Source: an uncultured bacterium (GTDB lineage Bacteria; Margulisbacteria; WOR-1; CAVSGV01). From it: a DNA stretch of 32,000 nucleotides. Below the pieces are notes generated by a model. It saw only the letters and a program-made list of their open reading frames with translations. It was not told where the DNA came from and ran no database searches. Below, one piece after another: positions 12,647 through 23,165 of the stretch. The first letter of the stretch is position 1, and each line of letters starts with the position of its first letter. The stretch is from assembly GCA_963699255.1 (NCBI GenBank), contig OY969425.1:1140001-1172000 (forward strand), read 5' to 3'. Position numbers and translations under genes: made by a program.

Positions 12647-13753
12647 ATGTTCATTCTCTCCATTGAAACATCCTGTGACGAAACCTCTGCTGCCGTCGTT
12701 GAGAACGGCCGCAGGGTGCTTTCGAGCGTCGTGGCTTCCCAGGTGGAGTTCCACAAGAAATACGGCGGAATAGTCCCGGAAGTCGCTTCAAGAATGCATA
12801 TCGAGGTCATTGCCGCTGTCGTCAAACAGGCGCTGGATGACGCGAAGATCCCCAATAAAAAGATCGATGCCGTTGCCGCGACCTATGGCCCCGGACTTGT
12901 TGGTTCATTGATAGTCGGTCTGAATTATGCCAAAGCTATTGCATACGCTTTACATAAACCATTTATTCCGGTTAACCATATAGAGGGGCATATATACGCT
13001 AATTTTATTGCAGAGACGCGAGATGCGAGACGCGAGATGCGAAAAAATAAATCACATCTCACATCTCACACATCACATCTCACTTTTCCCTTTGTCTGCC
13101 TTGTCGTATCCGGCGGGCACACGCAGTTGATACTGGTCAAAGATCACGGGAAATATGAAACCCTCGGAAGAACGCGCGATGATGCCGCAGGGGAAGCTTT
13201 TGACAAAGTTGCCAGATTCCTCGGGATCGGCTACCCGGGAGGCCCTATCATCGATAAAATGTCAAAAAAAGGCGATCCGGAAGCTGTAGATTTCCCGCGC
13301 GCGATGATCGATGATGGATACGATTTCAGCTTTAGCGGCCTTAAGACCGCTGTTGTAAACTACGTAAGGCGTAGTACGGAATCGAAAAGCGCAACGTGCA
13401 TCGATACACATGCATCGATACGCACTTCCAAACCGCTTGACGCCGCTCGAATCCCCGACTTAGTCGCTTCATTCCAGCAGGCGGTCGTGGACATCCTGGT
13501 CGAAAAAACTATCAGGGCGGCAAAAGACAAAAAGGTCAAGTGGATCGCTCTCGCCGGCGGAGTTTCCGCGAACTCAAGGCTTCGTGAAGACCTTAAAAGC
13601 AGGGCGAAAGAAGAAGGATTTGAAATATCCATACCGCCGCTCCAGCTATGCACCGATAACGCCGCGATGATCGGAAGCGCAGGTTATTACTTGATAAAAA
13701 AGGGCAAAAAGAGTAATCTGGATACAGAAGCGGTCTCGACCCTGAGGATCTAA
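12647..13753 (+). CDS. tsaD: tRNA N6-adenosine threonylcarbamoyltransferase TsaD (368 aa, with extra inserted segments)
   Basis: ORF track. Motifs: [85 protein letters not shown]. Confidence 0.93.
13013..13083. repeat. Heptad-repeat palindromic element inserted in-frame in tsaD
   Basis: (GAGACGC GAGATGC)x2 at 13013-13040. Spacer GAAAAAATAAAT at 13041-13052. CATCTCA CATCTCA CACATCA CATCTCA at 13055-82. The arms are complementary apart from C/A positions, which become G-U on the antisense strand. It is translated as [24 protein letters not shown]. Confidence 0.85.
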
Positions 13754-14514
13754 TGAAGAAGAAAATATATATACTCCTTATCGTCGTCTTTTGCATTTCA
13801 AGCTTTGCTTTTCTTTTCGGCTGCGGCAAATACGCGGCTCAATATTCCGCTCCTGTCATCCTTGAAAGATTTCCGGCAGAGGGGACCGGGGGCATAGGGA
13901 CAACGGAAACACTGTGGATCAAGTTCAGCAAATCAATGGATACGACCGGCCTCAATTCGATCAATGCTATCGCAACCAACATTAAATTCGCGACCGATAA
14001 TACGGCTATGGTGACATTCGAACCCGGCGTTACGCCCGAAGTCGTTTGGTCCGAAGACAACTCAAAGCTCACTCTTGTCAATTTATTCTTCACCGCGGAT
14101 TCCGGCAACAGGATACACATTCAATCATCCAGAGAAGCCTTCCAGGACGTGAACGGCCTTTATCTGACAGAGAACGCGGACCTTTGGAGCTTCACTGTTT
14201 CGGGACTGAACATAGTGAGCAGGTACCCCACGATAGATGCTACGATCTCGAACATTCCAACGACGGCCGTTGCAACATTCGATAACTCCGTAGTAACAGC
14301 CTCATTCTTGATAAGTACGGGAGAGGGACACACAGCTGGAATGCCGATCCCATCTCCGCCGTCCTTCACCTGGTCAAACTCGGATAAGACTTTGAGCATT
14401 GAAAATGTTTCCTGGGAAGCGGCTTCGGGAACGGTCAATATCACGTATGAAGCAATCGATATTTACGGGAATGTCGTGACGAACGGCCAGCTATTCAATT
14501 ATAATCTTCCATAG
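13753..14514 (+). CDS. Lipoprotein with Ig-like (SbsA-type) domains, 253 aa
   Basis: ORF track. Signal peptide plus lipobox LFGC. The pattern P-x-dG...I-x-I-x-FSKSMD occurs twice. The start overlaps the tsaD stop (TAATG). Confidence 0.6.
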   Translation: MKKKIYILLIVVFCISSFAFLFGCGKYAAQYSAPVILERFPAEGTGGIGTTETLWIKFSKSMDTTGLNSINAIATNIKFATDNTAMVTFEPGVTPEVVWSEDNSKLTLVNLFFTADSGNRIHIQSSREAFQDVNGLYLTENADLWSFTVSGLNIVSRYPTIDATISNIPTTAVATFDNSVVTASFLISTGEGHTAGMPIPSPPSFTWSNSDKTLSIENVSWEAASGTVNITYEAIDIYGNVVTNGQLFNYNLP

Positions 14515-14538
14515 CCTGTCCAGAACGGAGCCGAAGGA

Positions 14539-15522
14539 CTATTTCATATCATCAAGGAGACCGGCCATTGCAGCTATAACGTCCTTTGTTTCCGGTTTCA
14601 TGAATTCTTCGTAGGTGAATATTTTCCTGCCGCTGTTGAACGCGGAGATCACGGTCGCCGAGTAATACCTGTCCAGCGTGTTCTTTATCGTGGTCGCGAG
14701 CTGTTTCTTAACGATAGCTTTCACCGAATCCATCTTATAAGTGTTGAAACACAGCGCAAACGTGACGTACTCGCCTGAAGAAGTATCAAGCTTTGAAAGG
14801 TGATCCTCAGCGCGGCCTTCCATCGCGCCGCGGCTTCCCCCGATGTCGGCATAATTGATGTCAAAAGCCTTAAGAGCCATGCCCAGATCATCCATGCTCT
14901 TGTCGACCATGGATATGGTGTCCGCGGGAGTATAGATCACGTATCTTTTCCATTCGCTGCCGTTGAGAAGCGCATACGCCCAGCCCAGCCTGTTGTAAGC
15001 CTTTGCGTAATAAAGGGGATAATACTGCGCCGGGGATATGTTCATGCTTTTTTCCGTTGTAAGGTTGGATATCGATGTCAGGACCTCGTTTAGCCAGGAA
15101 TCCGCTTCCTCATACATTTCAAGCTGTTTATACAGCTTCACGACCGAACCCTCGATCGACCTGTGCGTCAGGATCCCCTTCCTGAAAGCGGAAGCGATGG
15201 CATAAGGCAGGACTTCAGCGGCGAGGTCCGGGGTTGTGTCTTTCGCATTAAGTATCTCGACCGCCTTGGCGTTAACAGCGGACAGCGTCGAAAGGGCGTT
15301 ATCATACGCGCCGAGCCTCTCCCTTACGAGCGCCCTCTTGTACAGGTCCGCAAGGGACTTTGTCGGCCTGCTTGCCGTGGAGGAGATCACGTAATCCGTG
15401 ACGTTCTCGCCGAGCGACTTAGAATCCGACTGCGGCATATCCTCGAACGTGGTCGCCATTTCCTGGCAGAAGCAAGCCGTGGACATGAGTAATAGCGATA
15501 TTATCAATAAAATTTTGAGCAT
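14539..15522 (-). CDS. Secreted hypothetical protein, ~327 aa
   Basis: I trimmed the ORF-track frame to MLKILLIISLLLMSTACFCQE (signal peptide). I recognise no family. Confidence 0.55.
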   Translation of the reverse strand: MLKILLIISLLLMSTACFCQEMATTFEDMPQSDSKSLGENVTDYVISSTASRPTKSLADLYKRALVRERLGAYDNALSTLSAVNAKAVEILNAKDTTPDLAAEVLPYAIASAFRKGILTHRSIEGSVVKLYKQLEMYEEADSWLNEVLTSISNLTTEKSMNISPAQYYPLYYAKAYNRLGWAYALLNGSEWKRYVIYTPADTISMVDKSMDDLGMALKAFDINYADIGGSRGAMEGRAEDHLSKLDTSSGEYVTFALCFNTYKMDSVKAIVKKQLATTIKNTLDRYYSATVISAFNSGRKIFTYEEFMKPETKDVIAAMAGLLDDMK

Positions 15523-15635: not shown

Positions 15636-16247
15636 CTAATTTTGTGAGTATGGGGGGATAAATTTTTCAAGGCGGCATTTTTCAGAATAGAGAATATTTG
15701 CAAAATTTTTCATGTTCCACCCCAGACCTGTCATGCCGCTTCGAGCATCGATCTTGTCCATCTCATTCTTGTCAAAAGTTAGAGCTTTTGACTCTCGATA
15801 AGTATCCAGGCTGGACTTTCCATCTTTGCCACAGGAATAAAAATTAGTGACCCAATGCGCATAAGCATCAATGAATTGCTCCACGATCCGATCCATTACC
15901 CCCACCAATTCCGGGCAAAGTTCTTTGAACATTATGAAGTCTCTTTGTTCATTTGTTTTTTTATTTGAGATGTCAGCCGCGCTCCCCATTAGATTATTCC
16001 AAAGATCGAGCGCTCGAGGTATTTTCCCTGTGGTCAATGATTTGAGACCGTCTGAGATTATTTTGTCGGCCGCGTTCAAGCGTCTTTTAGCATACTTGCC
16101 GATCAACAACGCTTGGTCGTCAAAATCAAGGTCAAGGAATCGCTCTCTGATACCGCGACGGACAGGTGAATTCGGTGAATGCTGCAGTATTGCGCGGCTT
16201 AGCCACCTATTCATTCTGGGATCCGGTTTATAATCGCCTATTCTCAT
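15636..16247 (-). CDS. Hypothetical protein, paralog A of a tandem pair (203 aa)
   Basis: ORF track. It shares HWVTNFYSCGKDGKSS...MDKID...G with its neighbour. GGAG SD upstream. No family recognised. Confidence 0.6.
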   Translation of the reverse strand: MRIGDYKPDPRMNRWLSRAILQHSPNSPVRRGIRERFLDLDFDDQALLIGKYAKRRLNAADKIISDGLKSLTTGKIPRALDLWNNLMGSAADISNKKTNEQRDFIMFKELCPELVGVMDRIVEQFIDAYAHWVTNFYSCGKDGKSSLDTYRESKALTFDKNEMDKIDARSGMTGLGWNMKNFANILYSEKCRLEKFIPPYSQN

Positions 16248-16344: not shown

Positions 16345-16935
16345 TTAGATCTTATAACTTTCGGGGAAATTCTTTAAGAGGAGATCGTCCGCATATTTTT
16401 TTATGTGTTGTCCCAGAAGATTCATGTCGCTTTTGTCATTGATCATTTGCATATCATCACTGCTTAAATCGCGAGCTGCTGAATTTTTACAGGCCGAAAA
16501 ACTGCGCTCTCCATCTCCGCCACAGGAATAAAAATTGTCCACCCAATACTTGAATGATCCCGTGAAAAGCCTCGTGATCTCACTGGATACATCCGCCAAT
16601 TGCGGGTAAAGCTTGTTGATCGTTTTGATCATCAGGTAATCGCTCTTTTTATCTGTTTTAATATTTTCACCAGGCTTTTCATAAGAATTCGCAAGTACCC
16701 TGAACCAGAGATAAACTGCAGTTGGTTTTGTTTTTCCTGAAATATGCTGTGATATTAATTTATTGACTTGATTCAACTGCAATTTAGCAACCGTACCGAT
16801 CTCCTTCGCCTGTTCGGCGGGGGAAAGCCGCCGAAATTTCAATCTGTCAGCAGGGGTAATAGCTGATGGGTCAGACATGGCGCGACGTGCAAGAGTATGC
16901 GCGTAAGGCAGCTTGTTTCCAATTATTGTTGTCAT
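16345..16935 (-). CDS. Hypothetical protein, paralog B of a tandem pair (196 aa)
   Basis: ORF track. Motif YWVDNFYSCGGDGERS...MQMIN...G. GGGGGA SD upstream. Confidence 0.6.
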   Translation of the reverse strand: MTTIIGNKLPYAHTLARRAMSDPSAITPADRLKFRRLSPAEQAKEIGTVAKLQLNQVNKLISQHISGKTKPTAVYLWFRVLANSYEKPGENIKTDKKSDYLMIKTINKLYPQLADVSSEITRLFTGSFKYWVDNFYSCGGDGERSFSACKNSAARDLSSDDMQMINDKSDMNLLGQHIKKYADDLLLKNFPESYKI

Positions 16936-17001: not shown

Positions 17002-17029
17002 AAAAATTTCAATATATTTATATTTTTCT

Positions 17030-17057
17030 CATCTCACATCTCTCATCTCGCATCTCT
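17030..17057. repeat. Solo (CATCTCN)x4 heptad array; matches the pyrimidine arm of the tsaD element
   Basis: CATCTCA CATCTCT CATCTCG CATCTCT, preceded by an A/T-rich tract (17005-17029). No complementary GAGAYGC arm lies nearby. Confidence 0.7.
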
Positions 17058-17061
17058 ATCC

Positions 17062-17090
17062 TTCACTTGCCTTATTTATTATTGTATAAT
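17062..17090 (+). promoter_or_regulatory. gatCAB promoter: TTCACT-N17-TGTATAAT, 7 nt from the gatC ATG
   Basis: -35 TTCACT at 17062-67, a 17-nt spacer ending in TG, and -10 TATAAT at 17085-90. Then caaaaac-ATG (17098), with no SD. Confidence 0.5.
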
Positions 17091-17097
17091 CAAAAAC

Positions 17098-17385
17098 ATG
17101 AAAGTGACCGTTAAGGATGTTGAACACGTCGCAAAACTGGCGAGATTAGGCCTCACGCAAGAAGAAAAAAAGCGCTTCACGCAGCAGCTGTCAGGCATAC
17201 TGGAATACGCGGAAACCATAAACAAGCTCGACACAAAGAATGTCATTCCTACCTCTCACGCGATCCCGATGAAGAACGTTTTCAGGGAAGACAAAGTATC
17301 GGAATTCGAAGATCAAAAATCGATAATCGGCAACGCCCCCAGAGAAGAGAACGGCATGTTCTCCGTCCCCAGGATAATGGAGTAA
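17098..17385 (+). CDS. gatC: Glu/Asp-tRNA amidotransferase subunit C
   Basis: Trimmed from ORF 16897-17385. Reads [27 protein letters not shown]...; 95 aa. Confidence 0.9.
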
Positions 17386-20897: not shown

Positions 20898-21506
20898 ATG
20901 CACGTATCTATATTAATATCAATAGTAGCCTTATTTCTATCAGGGTATACATTTTACTTTTCGTTTATAAGACCATGTAAAATTGATGTTTATGTAGGCG
21001 ACAAAATAGGCATAGTTAAATCGTCCGGTGGAGACTATTCGAAGGTTCACCTTAACTGCAACTTTGTTAACAATACCCCAAGTAATGGCGTGATCGATAA
21101 AATATTATTGGAAATTGAAGCTCCTGATAAAAAGAAATATCAATTTGACTGGGATGAATATTATAAATATGTGGGAAATCAAGGCGTCGAACCCGAATCT
21201 TTATCGTTTCCTATTGCCATTAATTCAAAGAATTCTGTTTATAAAGGCATTCAATTCAAAATGCGCGATCACTCAGAAATCATAGGTTCCAGAACTGTTT
21301 CGGAAACGAGCATATCATGGACAACCGGAAAATACACACTTACTATCAAGGGCTGGTCAAATAAATCCAGCATAAATGAAAAGCCAAATATTATTAAGCT
21401 TTTTCAAATAGATATTAATGCAATTAAATTAGATGAAATTACTCATATAAATGCAGGCGAGCACGCAATGGTTGTATTTATTCCTCTGTCAGGTTGGGAT
21501 GAATAA
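20898..21506 (+). CDS. Single-pass membrane protein with beta-rich extracytoplasmic domain, unknown function, 202 aa
   Basis: ORF track. GAGGTG SD upstream. N-terminal TM ILISIVALFLSGYTFYFSFI. AT-rich coding sequence. Confidence 0.6.
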   Translation: MHVSILISIVALFLSGYTFYFSFIRPCKIDVYVGDKIGIVKSSGGDYSKVHLNCNFVNNTPSNGVIDKILLEIEAPDKKKYQFDWDEYYKYVGNQGVEPESLSFPIAINSKNSVYKGIQFKMRDHSEIIGSRTVSETSISWTTGKYTLTIKGWSNKSSINEKPNIIKLFQIDINAIKLDEITHINAGEHAMVVFIPLSGWDE

Positions 21507-22431
21507 TAGATTACAAAAAGACAAACAGATAAATTCCATTGATGCCATCATCAATAAACTAGAAAAGATTATTGGGTCCTTTAGCGAACAGGAGATTAAT
21601 AAGCTTCACAGCTTCTCTTCAACCGCAGATGAAAGAGCAAAGGGGTTTTATGCTGGTTCAAAAGAATATTGTGATTATATTACGAACAACATTATAGGCA
21701 TTTTAAAGGGGATAATTAAACCAAACAAAAGAGAGACGCTATTAATCGGATTGTTTGGTCGATTTTATGGGAGGCTTAGAGATGCTGTTCAGCTAAATAA
21801 TTGGATATATTTCGAGTCTACTGCATCAGCAACTAGGACAATGTTTGAGATTCTTGTTGATATGATATTAATAAGTAAGGACACGTCCTCTGTTAGCATT
21901 GATAAATACTTCGAATATATAGATCTGAAGAAATATGATTACATGAAAAAGTATTATGAGTATATTGATGCGAAAAAGTGTAGCAAAAATGAATTTTATT
22001 ATAGCGCAAAAGAATATGTTGATAATATAAACAAATCAAAGGATGTTGCTAGCACTATTAAACAAGTATGGCGAGCGGAAAAACTCCCAAAAACTTGGAC
22101 AGGGAATGACCTTGCGACTAACGCAGAAAATGCCGAACTAAGTGAAATATATAGGTATCTATATGCAAGATTGTGTTGGCAAACCCATTCGGGCTTAACG
22201 CATGTTTTAGGGTTTAAACAAGACTACTTTATCAATACATATGGCGAAGCCCACCTTAACATTCAAGCATTTACTATGAGAATGTTGCGAATTTTTATTG
22301 GCGAATTTAAACTCGACAAAGCAATGCCTAATCTTATGAAATCAATAGAAACCGTTGAACAAGTCCCAGCAATTTCGTTTATCATACAAGATCTTAATAA
22401 AATGAATCAAGCTACAGTTAAACCAAAATAA
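21499..22431 (+). CDS. Alpha-helical protein with Rx5H motif; possible HEPN/DUF5677-like, ~310 aa
   Basis: I trimmed the ORF-track frame to MNNRLQKDK. Its ATG overlaps the upstream stop by 8 nt (ATGAATAA). It contains LFGRFYGRLRDAVQL...TMFEILVDMIL and YARLCWQTHSGL (R at 22168-70, H at 22186-88). The family assignment is from memory and unverified. Confidence 0.5.
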   Translation: MNNRLQKDKQINSIDAIINKLEKIIGSFSEQEINKLHSFSSTADERAKGFYAGSKEYCDYITNNIIGILKGIIKPNKRETLLIGLFGRFYGRLRDAVQLNNWIYFESTASATRTMFEILVDMILISKDTSSVSIDKYFEYIDLKKYDYMKKYYEYIDAKKCSKNEFYYSAKEYVDNINKSKDVASTIKQVWRAEKLPKTWTGNDLATNAENAELSEIYRYLYARLCWQTHSGLTHVLGFKQDYFINTYGEAHLNIQAFTMRMLRIFIGEFKLDKAMPNLMKSIETVEQVPAISFIIQDLNKMNQATVKPK

Positions 22432-22685
22432 TTCAATCTAACATTTATCTAATACTTCGTGTCATTTTTAACTGATTTCAACCGACTTACTCCGACTTTA
22501 CATAACCCAAAGGTTGGCTGGCACACCCTTTCCGCATTTGGCCCCAGAACATTGATCTCCCCTTCCCTTCGCCATCTTGGATTACCAGCAAAACTTTAAA
22601 AAATGTGAAATTTTCAACATAATTTGCCGAAATACCACAGTGAAGAGGAATTTGAGCCCGAATAATAAGTATAGGAGGAATTAAT

Positions 22686-23165
22686 GTGGTCAGCATAAAG
22701 CCTGTCTATGTAAGATTACGAGATCATAGTACATTTCCTAAGGCCGCCTATGGCAAAATAAGCCGGCAGCTGTTAAGCAGTGTTTCCTGCCTGCCCAAGG
22801 ACATCCTGGAAAAGATACACTTTCCCCCTACCGTCGTTCGATTGCCAATTACACTGCTGGAAAAAGCCTTAAAAGACATCAGGCCCGAAACCCCCGTAAA
22901 TTTCGGATATTATTCCGATAAGCCGTCAACAACCTTTAAGGCGGCTGTCGAACTAATGAATGCTCACTTAAAATTGTCGAACGCGGTGATTGCAGTAAAT
23001 ATTGATGGTAAGACAGCCGCACTCAATGAGAGATGGGTAGGCGCTCCAATGCAGCTGAATTTCTACAGACTATTCGATAATAACGGGAAGTTAGAGAATA
23101 CGAACGGTGAAGACACTATACACATCGACCTGACCAGCATGCGCATCGCAAAGTTAGGTGCGTGA
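22686..23165 (+). CDS. Hypothetical protein, paralog 1 of a tandem pair, 159 aa, GTG start
   Basis: ORF track. AGGAGG lies 7 nt upstream of GTG. Shared motif (V/I)SCLPxxILEKxxFP...SxAVIAV. Confidence 0.6.
   Translation: MVSIKPVYVRLRDHSTFPKAAYGKISRQLLSSVSCLPKDILEKIHFPPTVVRLPITLLEKALKDIRPETPVNFGYYSDKPSTTFKAAVELMNAHLKLSNAVIAVNIDGKTAALNERWVGAPMQLNFYRLFDNNGKLENTNGEDTIHIDLTSMRIAKLGA

Follow-up and report, generated by a model that had tools for sequence, protein, structure and literature searches.

The tRNA-modification gene tsaD in the 32-kb stretch of DNA analysed here (the window), from an uncultured WOR-1 bacterium of the Margulisbacteria, contains a 71-bp element at window positions 13013–13083 that is organized in 7-nt tandem units. 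Four GAGAYGC units form its left arm, an A-rich spacer follows, and four CATCTCA-type units form its right arm. We give a probability of roughly 50% to the explanation that this element is an in-frame copy of a lineage-specific, multi-copy heptad repeat, selfish or near-neutral for its host, in which the requirements of the repeat family are kept while the hairpin on the sense strand is kept weak. Among orthologous copies, it is the pattern of the nucleic acid that is conserved and not the peptide. TsaD itself evidently dispenses with the element, as relatives have an empty loop or quite different inserts at the same place. Any function of the element is unproven.

The preliminary description of this DNA had placed four heptads in each arm, and our analysis recovers both arms to the base (Table 1). 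Tandem Repeats Finder reports period 7 with 4.3 copies at 13013–13042 and 4.6 copies at 13052–13083, and it resolves the left arm into two perfect copies of a 14-nt unit. The element thus has the head-to-tail 7-nt units, in at least three to four copies, that define a heptad simple repeat. On the minus strand, the right arm reads (GAGATGT)n, and a repeat finder scores the element as an inverted repeat with 30-nt arms and 73% complementarity. With up to two mismatches allowed, CATCTCACATCTCA matches the window six times against 0.23 expected, a number reached by none of 100 shuffles, and the GAGAYGC dimer matches eight times against 0.72 expected. Among periods of 4 to 15, strong self-similarity within the 32 kb appears at period 7 alone. 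The element opens at codon position 1 of tsaD (13013 − 12647 = 366), runs without a stop codon and encodes 24 residues, so that the in-frame placement proposed earlier is borne out in the 368-aa open reading frame (ORF). A known RNA family is ruled out as its identity: Rfam 15 gives no match at the gathering threshold anywhere in the window, and below that threshold there is a resemblance to miRNA-precursor hairpins alone.

The host protein is readily recognized. In phmmer searches, it matches the PDB TsaD chains 6NAK, 6N9A and 4YDU (the last from E. coli) with E values of 1e-100 to 1e-74, with Thermotoga maritima TsaD (6NAK/6N9A) aligning at about 1e-100. H111, H115 and the motifs SGGHT, GGV-AN and CTDNA-M are invariant in 36 TsaD sequences. 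The alignment to 6NAK/6N9A contains only two gaps, of 19 residues (query 125–143) and 21 residues (query 246–266), and the first coincides with the heptad element. The insert lies between the NHIEGH helix, which binds metal, and the FPF..SGGHT strand, in agreement with the blocks named in the preliminary description, and here the distance from NF to FPF is 31 residues, compared to 11–12 in insert-free relatives. We also built an AlphaFold model on 36 homologs. Its predicted local distance difference test score (pLDDT) averages 85.9 and falls below 50 in two segments alone, residues 124–142 and 248–262; the first of these contrasts with values above 90 elsewhere. Both comparisons that had been suggested beforehand were made: distant orthologs lack the loop, as the 19-residue gap indicates, and the structural model renders it disordered. 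Because of this gap and the low pLDDT, we take the element to encode an extension of the 11–12-residue loop, by about 19 residues, that is predicted to be disordered.

To place the element among its relatives, we surveyed the loop between HIYANF and FPF in 120 TsaD homologs of 58–100% identity and found it to be hypervariable. The full element is shared by P0002, P0003, P0004, P0006, P0008 and P0012. L005 and L007 have short forms, in which a single right unit accompanies four left ones, and only remnants of the right arm are left in P0013 ('ASHLS') and P0010 ('SQVSNLS'). In other homologs, the loop contains unrelated G+C-rich perfect palindromes (L004/L009; L008/L013/L018) or different heptad arrays (AAATCCC, CCCAATC and others), or it is empty, at 11–12 aa. 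On a rough neighbor-joining tree, full elements are scattered among clades with other loop states. These scattered full elements, together with the losses and replacements, indicate that the element is old in its subclade and that TsaD does not need it. All 57 relatives examined stay in frame at tsaD. An identical database protein is encoded on a 1.77-Mb contig. For one neighboring protein, a rubrerythrin, the best named matches come from Candidatus Margulisbacteria/Margulisiibacteriota and Saganbacteria, and it is by these matches that the host was assigned. The host phylum is placed in the Cyanobacteriota/Melainabacteria group, as a sibling to Cyanobacteria, and a circular WOR-1 genome of 1.67 Mb has been described (PMC8172020).

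The G+C-rich palindromes of the same tsaD loop are in frame and near-perfect (L004 10361–10438, L009 2654–2716, L008 10358–10412, and L013/L014/L018), fold at −45 to −56 kcal/mol on both strands, and encode peptides such as NSPPFSPSLIKRGGRGVS. We considered whether these unrelated types are dispersed elements and rejected the idea, as one extra 28-nt match alone was found (L011 1915–1942, the core of one type).

Seven full orthologous copies were compared at the DNA level: those of the window, L001, L002, L003, L011, L180 and L181, the latter six from related metagenomic genomes of Margulisbacteria/Saganbacteria-like affiliation. All seven have the form (GAGAYNN)4-GAAAAAAYARAT-(NNRTCTC)4, and the NF-to-FPF distance is 93 nt in six of them and 90 nt in the other. 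The loop of the consensus element, (GAGAYNN)4–loop–(NNRTCTC)4, is the A-rich GAAAAAAYAAAT; individual orthologs have spacers such as GAAAAAACAAAT, GAAAAAACAGAT and similar. The orthologous copies come from at least seven independent assemblies. In addition, the close relative L040 carries a variant element (1490–1564) in which some units have GTAA/TTAC in place of GAGA/TCTC, in both arms.

The seven genes share 73–81% DNA identity, and their silent positions provide a measure of constraint. Outside the element, 24 of 212 silent third positions (11%) are invariant in all seven orthologs. Inside it, the figure is 10 of 12 for third positions that fall on the GAGA/TCTC cores. These cores recur every 7 nt, while the three bases between them vary freely and the encoded residues differ. 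The left-arm GAGA cores are invariant, synonymous third positions included, and so are the right-arm TCTC cores save for the third unit of the window copy. Elsewhere in the gene, silent sites show no such cluster of invariance. Conservation therefore tracks the 7-nt register and not the codon, which means that the constraint, or the process that generates the pattern, acts on the nucleic acid.

The element folds asymmetrically. With RNA parameters, the plus strand of the window copy reaches −24.1 kcal/mol (z −4.7) and the minus strand −47.9 (z −9.4); DNA parameters yield −7.5 (z −0.55) and −17.9 (z −4.9), respectively. Across copies, energies range from −40 to −48 kcal/mol for the antisense strand and from −24 to −37 for the mRNA strand. 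The preliminary description had predicted a stronger hairpin on the minus strand, and both sets of parameters agree with it. The reason lies in the differences between the arms, which are C/A on the plus strand: they mostly become G-U wobbles in the antisense strand, which consequently folds better. All nine long elements, including the variants of L040 and L182, favor the antisense strand by 5–24 kcal/mol (−25.1 versus −13.5 kcal/mol in L040).

The pairing itself is supported by the orthologs. In an antisense alignment of the seven copies, 90.7% of pair cells contain standard pairs, compared to 35–56% when the partner arm is slid, and 10 pairs are changed on both sides. The paired percentage was reached by none of 500 shuffles and the covariation score by one of 500. 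A census of the non-Watson-Crick cells gave 41 antisense G-U pairs (A-C in the mRNA), 7 sense G-U pairs and 13 transversion mismatches, and each of the seven lineages shows the excess of antisense G-U. For this asymmetry, a nominal binomial p of 6e-7 overstates the evidence, because arm units are duplicated and some lineages are related; the sign test over lineages is the safer statement.

Two trivial causes of the wobble asymmetry were rejected. Avoidance of stop codons does not account for it: a Watson-Crick pair without a stop would have been available in each of the 41 antisense G-U cells, and the sense-wobble alternatives, too, are stop-free in 35 of 41. Nor does mutational or compositional bias: from the fourfold-degenerate sites of these genes, an A-C:G-T ratio of 0.91 would be expected, versus the 41:7 observed. 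From the fixed cores together with the wobble asymmetry, we conclude that something selects the nucleic acid.

We also looked for signals around the hairpin. An intrinsic-terminator scan makes no call at the element on either strand, although the 9-nt loop exceeds the limit of the scan. On the sense strand, CUUUUCCCUUU comes after the hairpin. On the antisense strand, the sequence after it is UUUUAU in three of the seven orthologs and UGCAAU in the window; a U-tract is also absent in L011. A conserved antisense promoter inside tsaD was rejected, as the gene has no second cluster of silent-site conservation. One promoter-like match at 13206–13179(−) is weak and falls within protein-constrained codons.

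Copies related to the element exist outside tsaD, as the search proposed with the preliminary description had anticipated. In the window, a partial copy (Table 1) consists of the same arm and A-rich loop as the tsaD copy, without a right arm; Tandem Repeats Finder counts 3.9 period-7 copies at 17030–17056. It is intergenic, between divergent promoter-like sites at 17062–17090(+) and 16951–16922(−), just upstream of the gatC −35 site, and L002 has decayed TCTC heptads at the matching place. This half copy was rejected as a hairpin, since its fold has a z of about 0 and no structure. The succession of an arm and GAAAAA(Y)A(T)AAAT recurs on the minus strand of this copy and in L011 6205–6251. The latter is a complete miniature copy that ends in T6, in an 85-nt spacer between two co-directional ORFs. 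In L011 (17659–17690) and L180 (17138–17169), arrays in the 5′ untranslated region reach the start codon of a dihydrolipoyl-dehydrogenase-like gene. Overall, we found 27 GAGA-core arrays, compared to 0–4 in shuffles. Our census of the family covers about 20–30 kb per genome; in carriers, it amounts to about one locus per 10–15 kb, a density that we infer may extend to the whole genome. In the roughly 650 kb examined, L011 6205–6251 is the only complete copy outside tsaD. Distant orthologs without the loop and related copies elsewhere thus occur together, the reverse of the outcome that would have spoken against a repeat element.

In bacteria, Cyanobacteria among them, tandem repeats of heptanucleotides have been recognized since about 1990, and we know of no agreed function or propagation mechanism. 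They are normally found in non-coding DNA, which offers no neutral standard of comparison. Against this background, we surveyed tandem repeats in 620 kb around the TsaD genes of relatives plus the window. Period 7 accounts for 46 arrays and period 14 for 7, whereas periods 6, 8 and 9 have 1, 10 and 12, respectively. Inside tsaD, which makes up 9.3% of the sequence, lie 29 of the 53 period-7/14 arrays (p about 1e-16), and they fall at two sites, the loop studied here and a second insert site. Periods divisible by three are not enriched in tsaD, with 6 arrays inside and 60 outside. The lineage accordingly displays the excess of period 7 expected of heptad repeats, and its arrays also change in unit number (4+4, 4+1 and remnants). 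Heptad repeats are, on the other hand, mainly intergenic; the element lies within an ORF, and intergenic copies of the GAGA unit exist.

The second insert of TsaD (Table 1) contains a 14-nt direct repeat, TGCATCGATACACA/TGCATCGATACGCA, at 13397–13424, and its residues 248–262 form the other segment of low pLDDT. At this site, relatives have other heptad arrays, for example GCGACCC, GGTACCA, GTAACCC and CTCAGAT. We rejected it as a structured element, as its fold barely beats shuffles (z −1.6/−2.3). Other housekeeping genes, named by inspection, contain heptads as well. A dihydrolipoyl-dehydrogenase-like protein has different heptads in the same loop in two genomes (L028 19545–19577, L037 14578–14615), and so does a radical-SAM protein in one loop (L020 15196–15226, L008 17755–17783). 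Single in-frame cases occur in RsmH-like and LipA-like proteins (L053 16837–16868; L018 19163–19188). The TsaD proteins of relatives also contain further small in-frame inserts, LARRSSGNWRNGGG (alignment columns 285–298; P0018, P0035, P0040) and LPAGRHG (columns 381–387; P0013, P0014), and the LPAGRHG insert resembles a G+C-rich palindrome upstream of gatC in L014/L015.

Beyond the lineage, we scanned one genome per species for (GAGAYNN)3GAGAY and obtained at least 120 matches, compared to about 17 expected by our own estimate; since the pattern fixed GAGAY, the scan is silent on whether GAGA is special among heptads. Among the matches listed are Chloroflexota, Bacteroidota, Planctomycetota, Verrucomicrobiota, Cyanobacteria and others, and arrays of at least four GAGAYNN units in other phyla often stand beside arrays of different heptads. 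In 16 of the 120 matches listed, mostly from Chloroflexota, an inverted partner array lies within 70 nt and can form a hairpin. The preliminary description had called an architecture with heptad arms unrecognized. The element is real, but inverted arrays have precedents, in these 16 cases and in the GGGAATC repeats of Xanthomonas, which sometimes form inverted pairs (PMC4692102). According to Mrazek (2007), as cited in PMC4679880 and PMC4692102, 7-nt units are the most over-represented of the longer simple repeats in many bacteria, and slippage of the polymerase has been proposed as the cause. TAACTGA heptamer arrays cluster just 5′ of start codons, and heptamers internal to ORFs are described chiefly from the ends of proteins or from hypothetical ones (PMC4679880).

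How might such a copy arise and persist? Under the explanation we favor, units would come and go through slipped-strand mispairing, 7 or 14 nt at a time. Traces of this process are visible: perfect 14-nt left-arm repeats attest recent duplication in the window and, independently, in L002. Variable positions are, moreover, decoupled from gene identity. L002, the nearest gene relative of the window, has a gene identity of 0.81 to it but agrees at 2 of 12 variable positions; the identity to L005 is 0.79, but 10 of 12 positions agree. The arms would be kept alike by arm-to-arm copying, that is, by template switching in a quasi-palindrome, and exchange with other copies of the family possibly adds to their likeness. 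Deletions would leave the last right-arm units only.

The host may tolerate the copy because it is stop-free, has a length divisible by three and sits in what is probably a permissive surface loop. Requirements at the level of the family, namely the cores and the hairpin, would be preserved by selection on the nucleic acid and not on the peptide. In tsaD, the sense hairpin would be kept weak (−24 instead of about −48 kcal/mol), so that transcription and translation can proceed. This explanation accords with how often the element has been lost, with the missing antisense U-tract in the window and with the general behavior of small palindromic repeats.

Several observations weigh against this explanation. 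L004, L008, L009 and L018 have sense-strand palindromes of −45 to −56 kcal/mol at the same site, and the tolerance of such strong sense hairpins weakens the claim that a weak one is selected. Selection for a disrupted sense hairpin should have enriched transversion mismatches as well; they are not enriched (13 versus 7 sense wobbles), which is a better fit to purifying selection for antisense pairing. Turnover of units fails to explain why four of seven positions are fixed and three are free. Homology among the variable triplets (TGG at h1 in three lineages, TCA at h3 in four) suggests that the arrays are old and not constantly regenerated. Machinery for propagation is not apparent either, as the 20 ORFs of the window include no transposase, reverse transcriptase or RAYT-like domain. 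The numbers, too, call for care: the family census rests on the short stretches covered per genome, and the 41:7 cells are non-independent, with duplicate units within arms and related lineages.

The main alternative, tentative but in our view possible, is that the hairpin of the antisense strand, as antisense RNA or minus-strand single-stranded DNA, is itself the selected product. It might act on one strand only, as a signal that stops, pauses or processes read-through from a convergent operon, or it might serve as a site for a putative factor that reads GAGA every 7 nt. GAGA-heptad hairpins would then be functional nucleic-acid elements of Margulisbacteria/Saganbacteria-type genomes, and perhaps of other phyla, with the tsaD copy kept for its antisense structure; this broader claim is likewise possible but doubtful. 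The mismatch spectrum is as such selection predicts, with antisense wobble transitions allowed and both sense wobbles and transversions rare, and the covariation, the slid controls and both types of folding agree with it, as does the confinement of silent-site invariance at cores to the element. Circumstantial support comes from a minus-strand operon that converges on the tsaD unit in the window, L001, L011 and L180, with gaps of 0–24 nt. Because there is no terminator-like hairpin on either strand at the gap, antisense read-through into tsaD is plausible. Selection for the antisense hairpin would also fit the UUUUAU that follows it in three of seven orthologs, the tolerance of strong sense hairpins in relatives, and the sole complete intergenic copy (L011 6205–6251), in which the better-folding strand is the transcribed one, a rule of a single case since there is only one such copy.

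Several points, however, speak against a selected antisense hairpin. The element has been lost or replaced many times in close relatives and so is dispensable, and the copies of the window and L011 are without an antisense U-tract. Its position is 0.6–1.5 kb inside the antisense path and not at a gene end, and it has neither a conserved antisense promoter signal nor an Rfam family. Simple selection for a hairpin also leaves unexplained why the cores are free of wobbles and covariation. The operon gaps mentioned above are at window 14514–14539, L001 11107–11115, L011 11502–11503 and L180 11499–11503.

Selection might instead act on the protein, with the two TsaD loops diversifying, for example, to escape an inhibitor or to tune contacts with partners or tRNA, and slippage as the mutational engine. 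The crowding of heptad arrays into tsaD, the dozens of loop sequences among the 120 homologs and the differences of both loops between sister taxa would be expected in this case. We nonetheless consider it unlikely, as silent sites at the cores are conserved while the residues between them change, the loop is predicted to be disordered and empty loops are common. Other housekeeping genes, furthermore, behave alike at their own loops, which points to general tolerance and not to an arms race specific to TsaD. A classical transposable miniature element, of the miniature inverted-repeat transposable element (MITE) or Rickettsia palindromic element (RPE) type, that entered tsaD in a single jump is less probable still. 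Palindromic inverted arms, several copies per genome and an in-frame position like that of RPEs (PMC10969869) recommend it. By inspection, though, there is no target-site duplication at the flanks, which are ATTGCA/CTTTTC in the window and ATAAAA/CCTTCC in relatives, and the window encodes no transposase. The arms are simple-sequence arrays of variable unit number, and partial copies are single-armed. Unrelated heptads at the same site in other relatives fit local generation better than targeted insertion.

We attach little weight to a contingency locus, in which gain or loss of a single 7-nt unit would shift the frame and switch tsaD off and on. Seven is not divisible by three, the left arm is a perfect 14-nt duplication, and heptanucleotide repeats drive phase variation in Haemophilus influenzae (PMC8262952, PMC12721329). 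Against such switching, 57 of 57 relatives are in frame, the arrays have only four units, and imperfect units suppress slippage. Most bacteria, too, depend wholly or almost wholly on t6A synthesis. An artefact of assembly or sequencing, or a chance run of low complexity, is hardly credible. Repeats in metagenome assemblies pose a general risk, and nothing further favors it; the same architecture recurs in at least seven independent assemblies from different samples, and the shuffle statistics are strong.

Among known systems, heptanucleotide repeats are the closest: the cyanobacterial STRR, GGGAATC of Xanthomonas and GGGGAYT of Nostoc (PMC4692102), and TAACTGA of Beggiatoaceae, Cyanobacteria and Bacteroidetes (PMC4679880). 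Like these, the element has three to five imperfect tandem 7-nt units, its lineage-specific unit occurs at many loci, copies lie just 5′ of start codons (L011, L180) and in promoter regions, and occasional pairs are inverted. It differs from them in that its place is within the gene of a conserved enzyme, that all three frames are used in reading it, and that it joins its arms and a conserved A-rich loop into one compact hairpin unit. A further difference is the pattern of four fixed and three free positions, measured against a silent-site baseline, with its strand-specific wobble.

The preliminary description had compared the element with RPEs. The analogy of an in-frame palindrome in a housekeeping gene holds; membership does not. 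RPEs, too, are multi-copy palindromic repeats that are in frame and stop-free in housekeeping genes at fold-compatible sites (PMC10969869). They measure about 100–150 bp (PMC10969869), form families with a conserved peptide, have no simple-sequence units and are restricted to Rickettsia. The element, at 71 bp, is half that size, consists of simple-sequence units and has copies with a single arm. Its copies share nucleotide cores and no common peptide, those outside tsaD being non-coding or partial. REP/BIME, ERIC and REPIN sequences resemble it as short multi-copy hairpins that lie in spacers between co-transcribed genes (as does L011 6205–6251) and may act on mRNA stability or termination. 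Unlike them, the element has no RAYT or GTAG-type foot motif, its arms are tandem heptads, and one copy is coding.

Quasi-palindromes offer a comparison of another kind. In template switching, one arm of an imperfect inverted repeat serves as the template for its partner, and the arms would stay complementary without selection. Such mutagenesis is said to be known from the E. coli work of Ripley and of Lovett. It is a mechanism and not an element family, and it predicts no preference for antisense over sense wobbles.

Four features are new: a compact arm-loop-arm heptad unit kept inside an essential-type gene; the pattern of four fixed and three free positions against a silent-site baseline; the strand-specific wobble; and the crowding of heptads into two TsaD loops throughout a phylum sibling to Cyanobacteria. 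The silent codons of tsaD supply an internal baseline (11% versus 10 of 12 at the cores), which makes selection on the nucleic acid, and the strand on which it acts, testable. Were the antisense hairpin indeed functional, this would be the first heptanucleotide repeat shown to be under purifying selection at the nucleotide level. More broadly, slippage of 7-nt units is apparently a routine means of building and remodeling surface loops of housekeeping enzymes in this phylum, parallel to the in-frame palindromes of Rickettsia but by a different route. Inserts of this type inflate variation in protein length and can mislead alignment, orthology assignment and structure prediction for uncultured lineages.

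Table 1. Positions in the window of the element, its parts and related features.
Feature	Position	Strand	Description
Left arm	13013–13040	+	GAGACGC GAGATGC GAGACGC GAGATGC; encodes ETRDARREM(R)
A-rich spacer/hairpin loop	13041–13054	+	GAAAAAATAAAT (13041–13052) + CA; encodes (R)KNKS
Right arm	13055–13083	+	CATCTCA CATCTCA CACATCA CATCTCA (13055–13082) + C; encodes 10 residues
Antisense hairpin	13011–13084	−	31 base pairs, 8 of them G-U; 9-nt U-rich loop
tsaD ORF, host of the element	12647–13753	+	368 aa; PF00814 on identical database protein; PDB matches; AlphaFold model
Second lineage-specific TsaD insert	13382–13444	+	~21 aa, residues 246–266; 21-residue gap versus 6NAK
Partial second copy	17016–17056	−	GAGATGC GAGATGA GAGATGT GAGATGA (array 17029–17056), then GAAAAATATAAAT

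The remaining observations concern other parts of the window. In the window (17062–17100) and in nearly all relatives (L001–L053), a conserved TGTATAAT/TAGTATAAT box stands in front of gatC, with only about 8 nt between its end and the ATG, which suggests that the gatC mRNA may be leaderless or have a very short leader. Cumulative GC skew over positions 1–32000 has a shallow minimum at about 17–18.5 kb and then rises, too weak a signal to call a replication origin. Two tandem paralogous ORFs on the minus strand, at 15636–16247 and 16345–16935, encode proteins of 203 and 196 aa with the motif YWVxNFYSCGxDG and no Pfam match. Finally, positions 21000–23000 have a G+C content of 0.33–0.39, compared to about 0.47 elsewhere, and contain a DUF5677 ORF and several ORFs without a family match; this region may be a horizontally acquired island.

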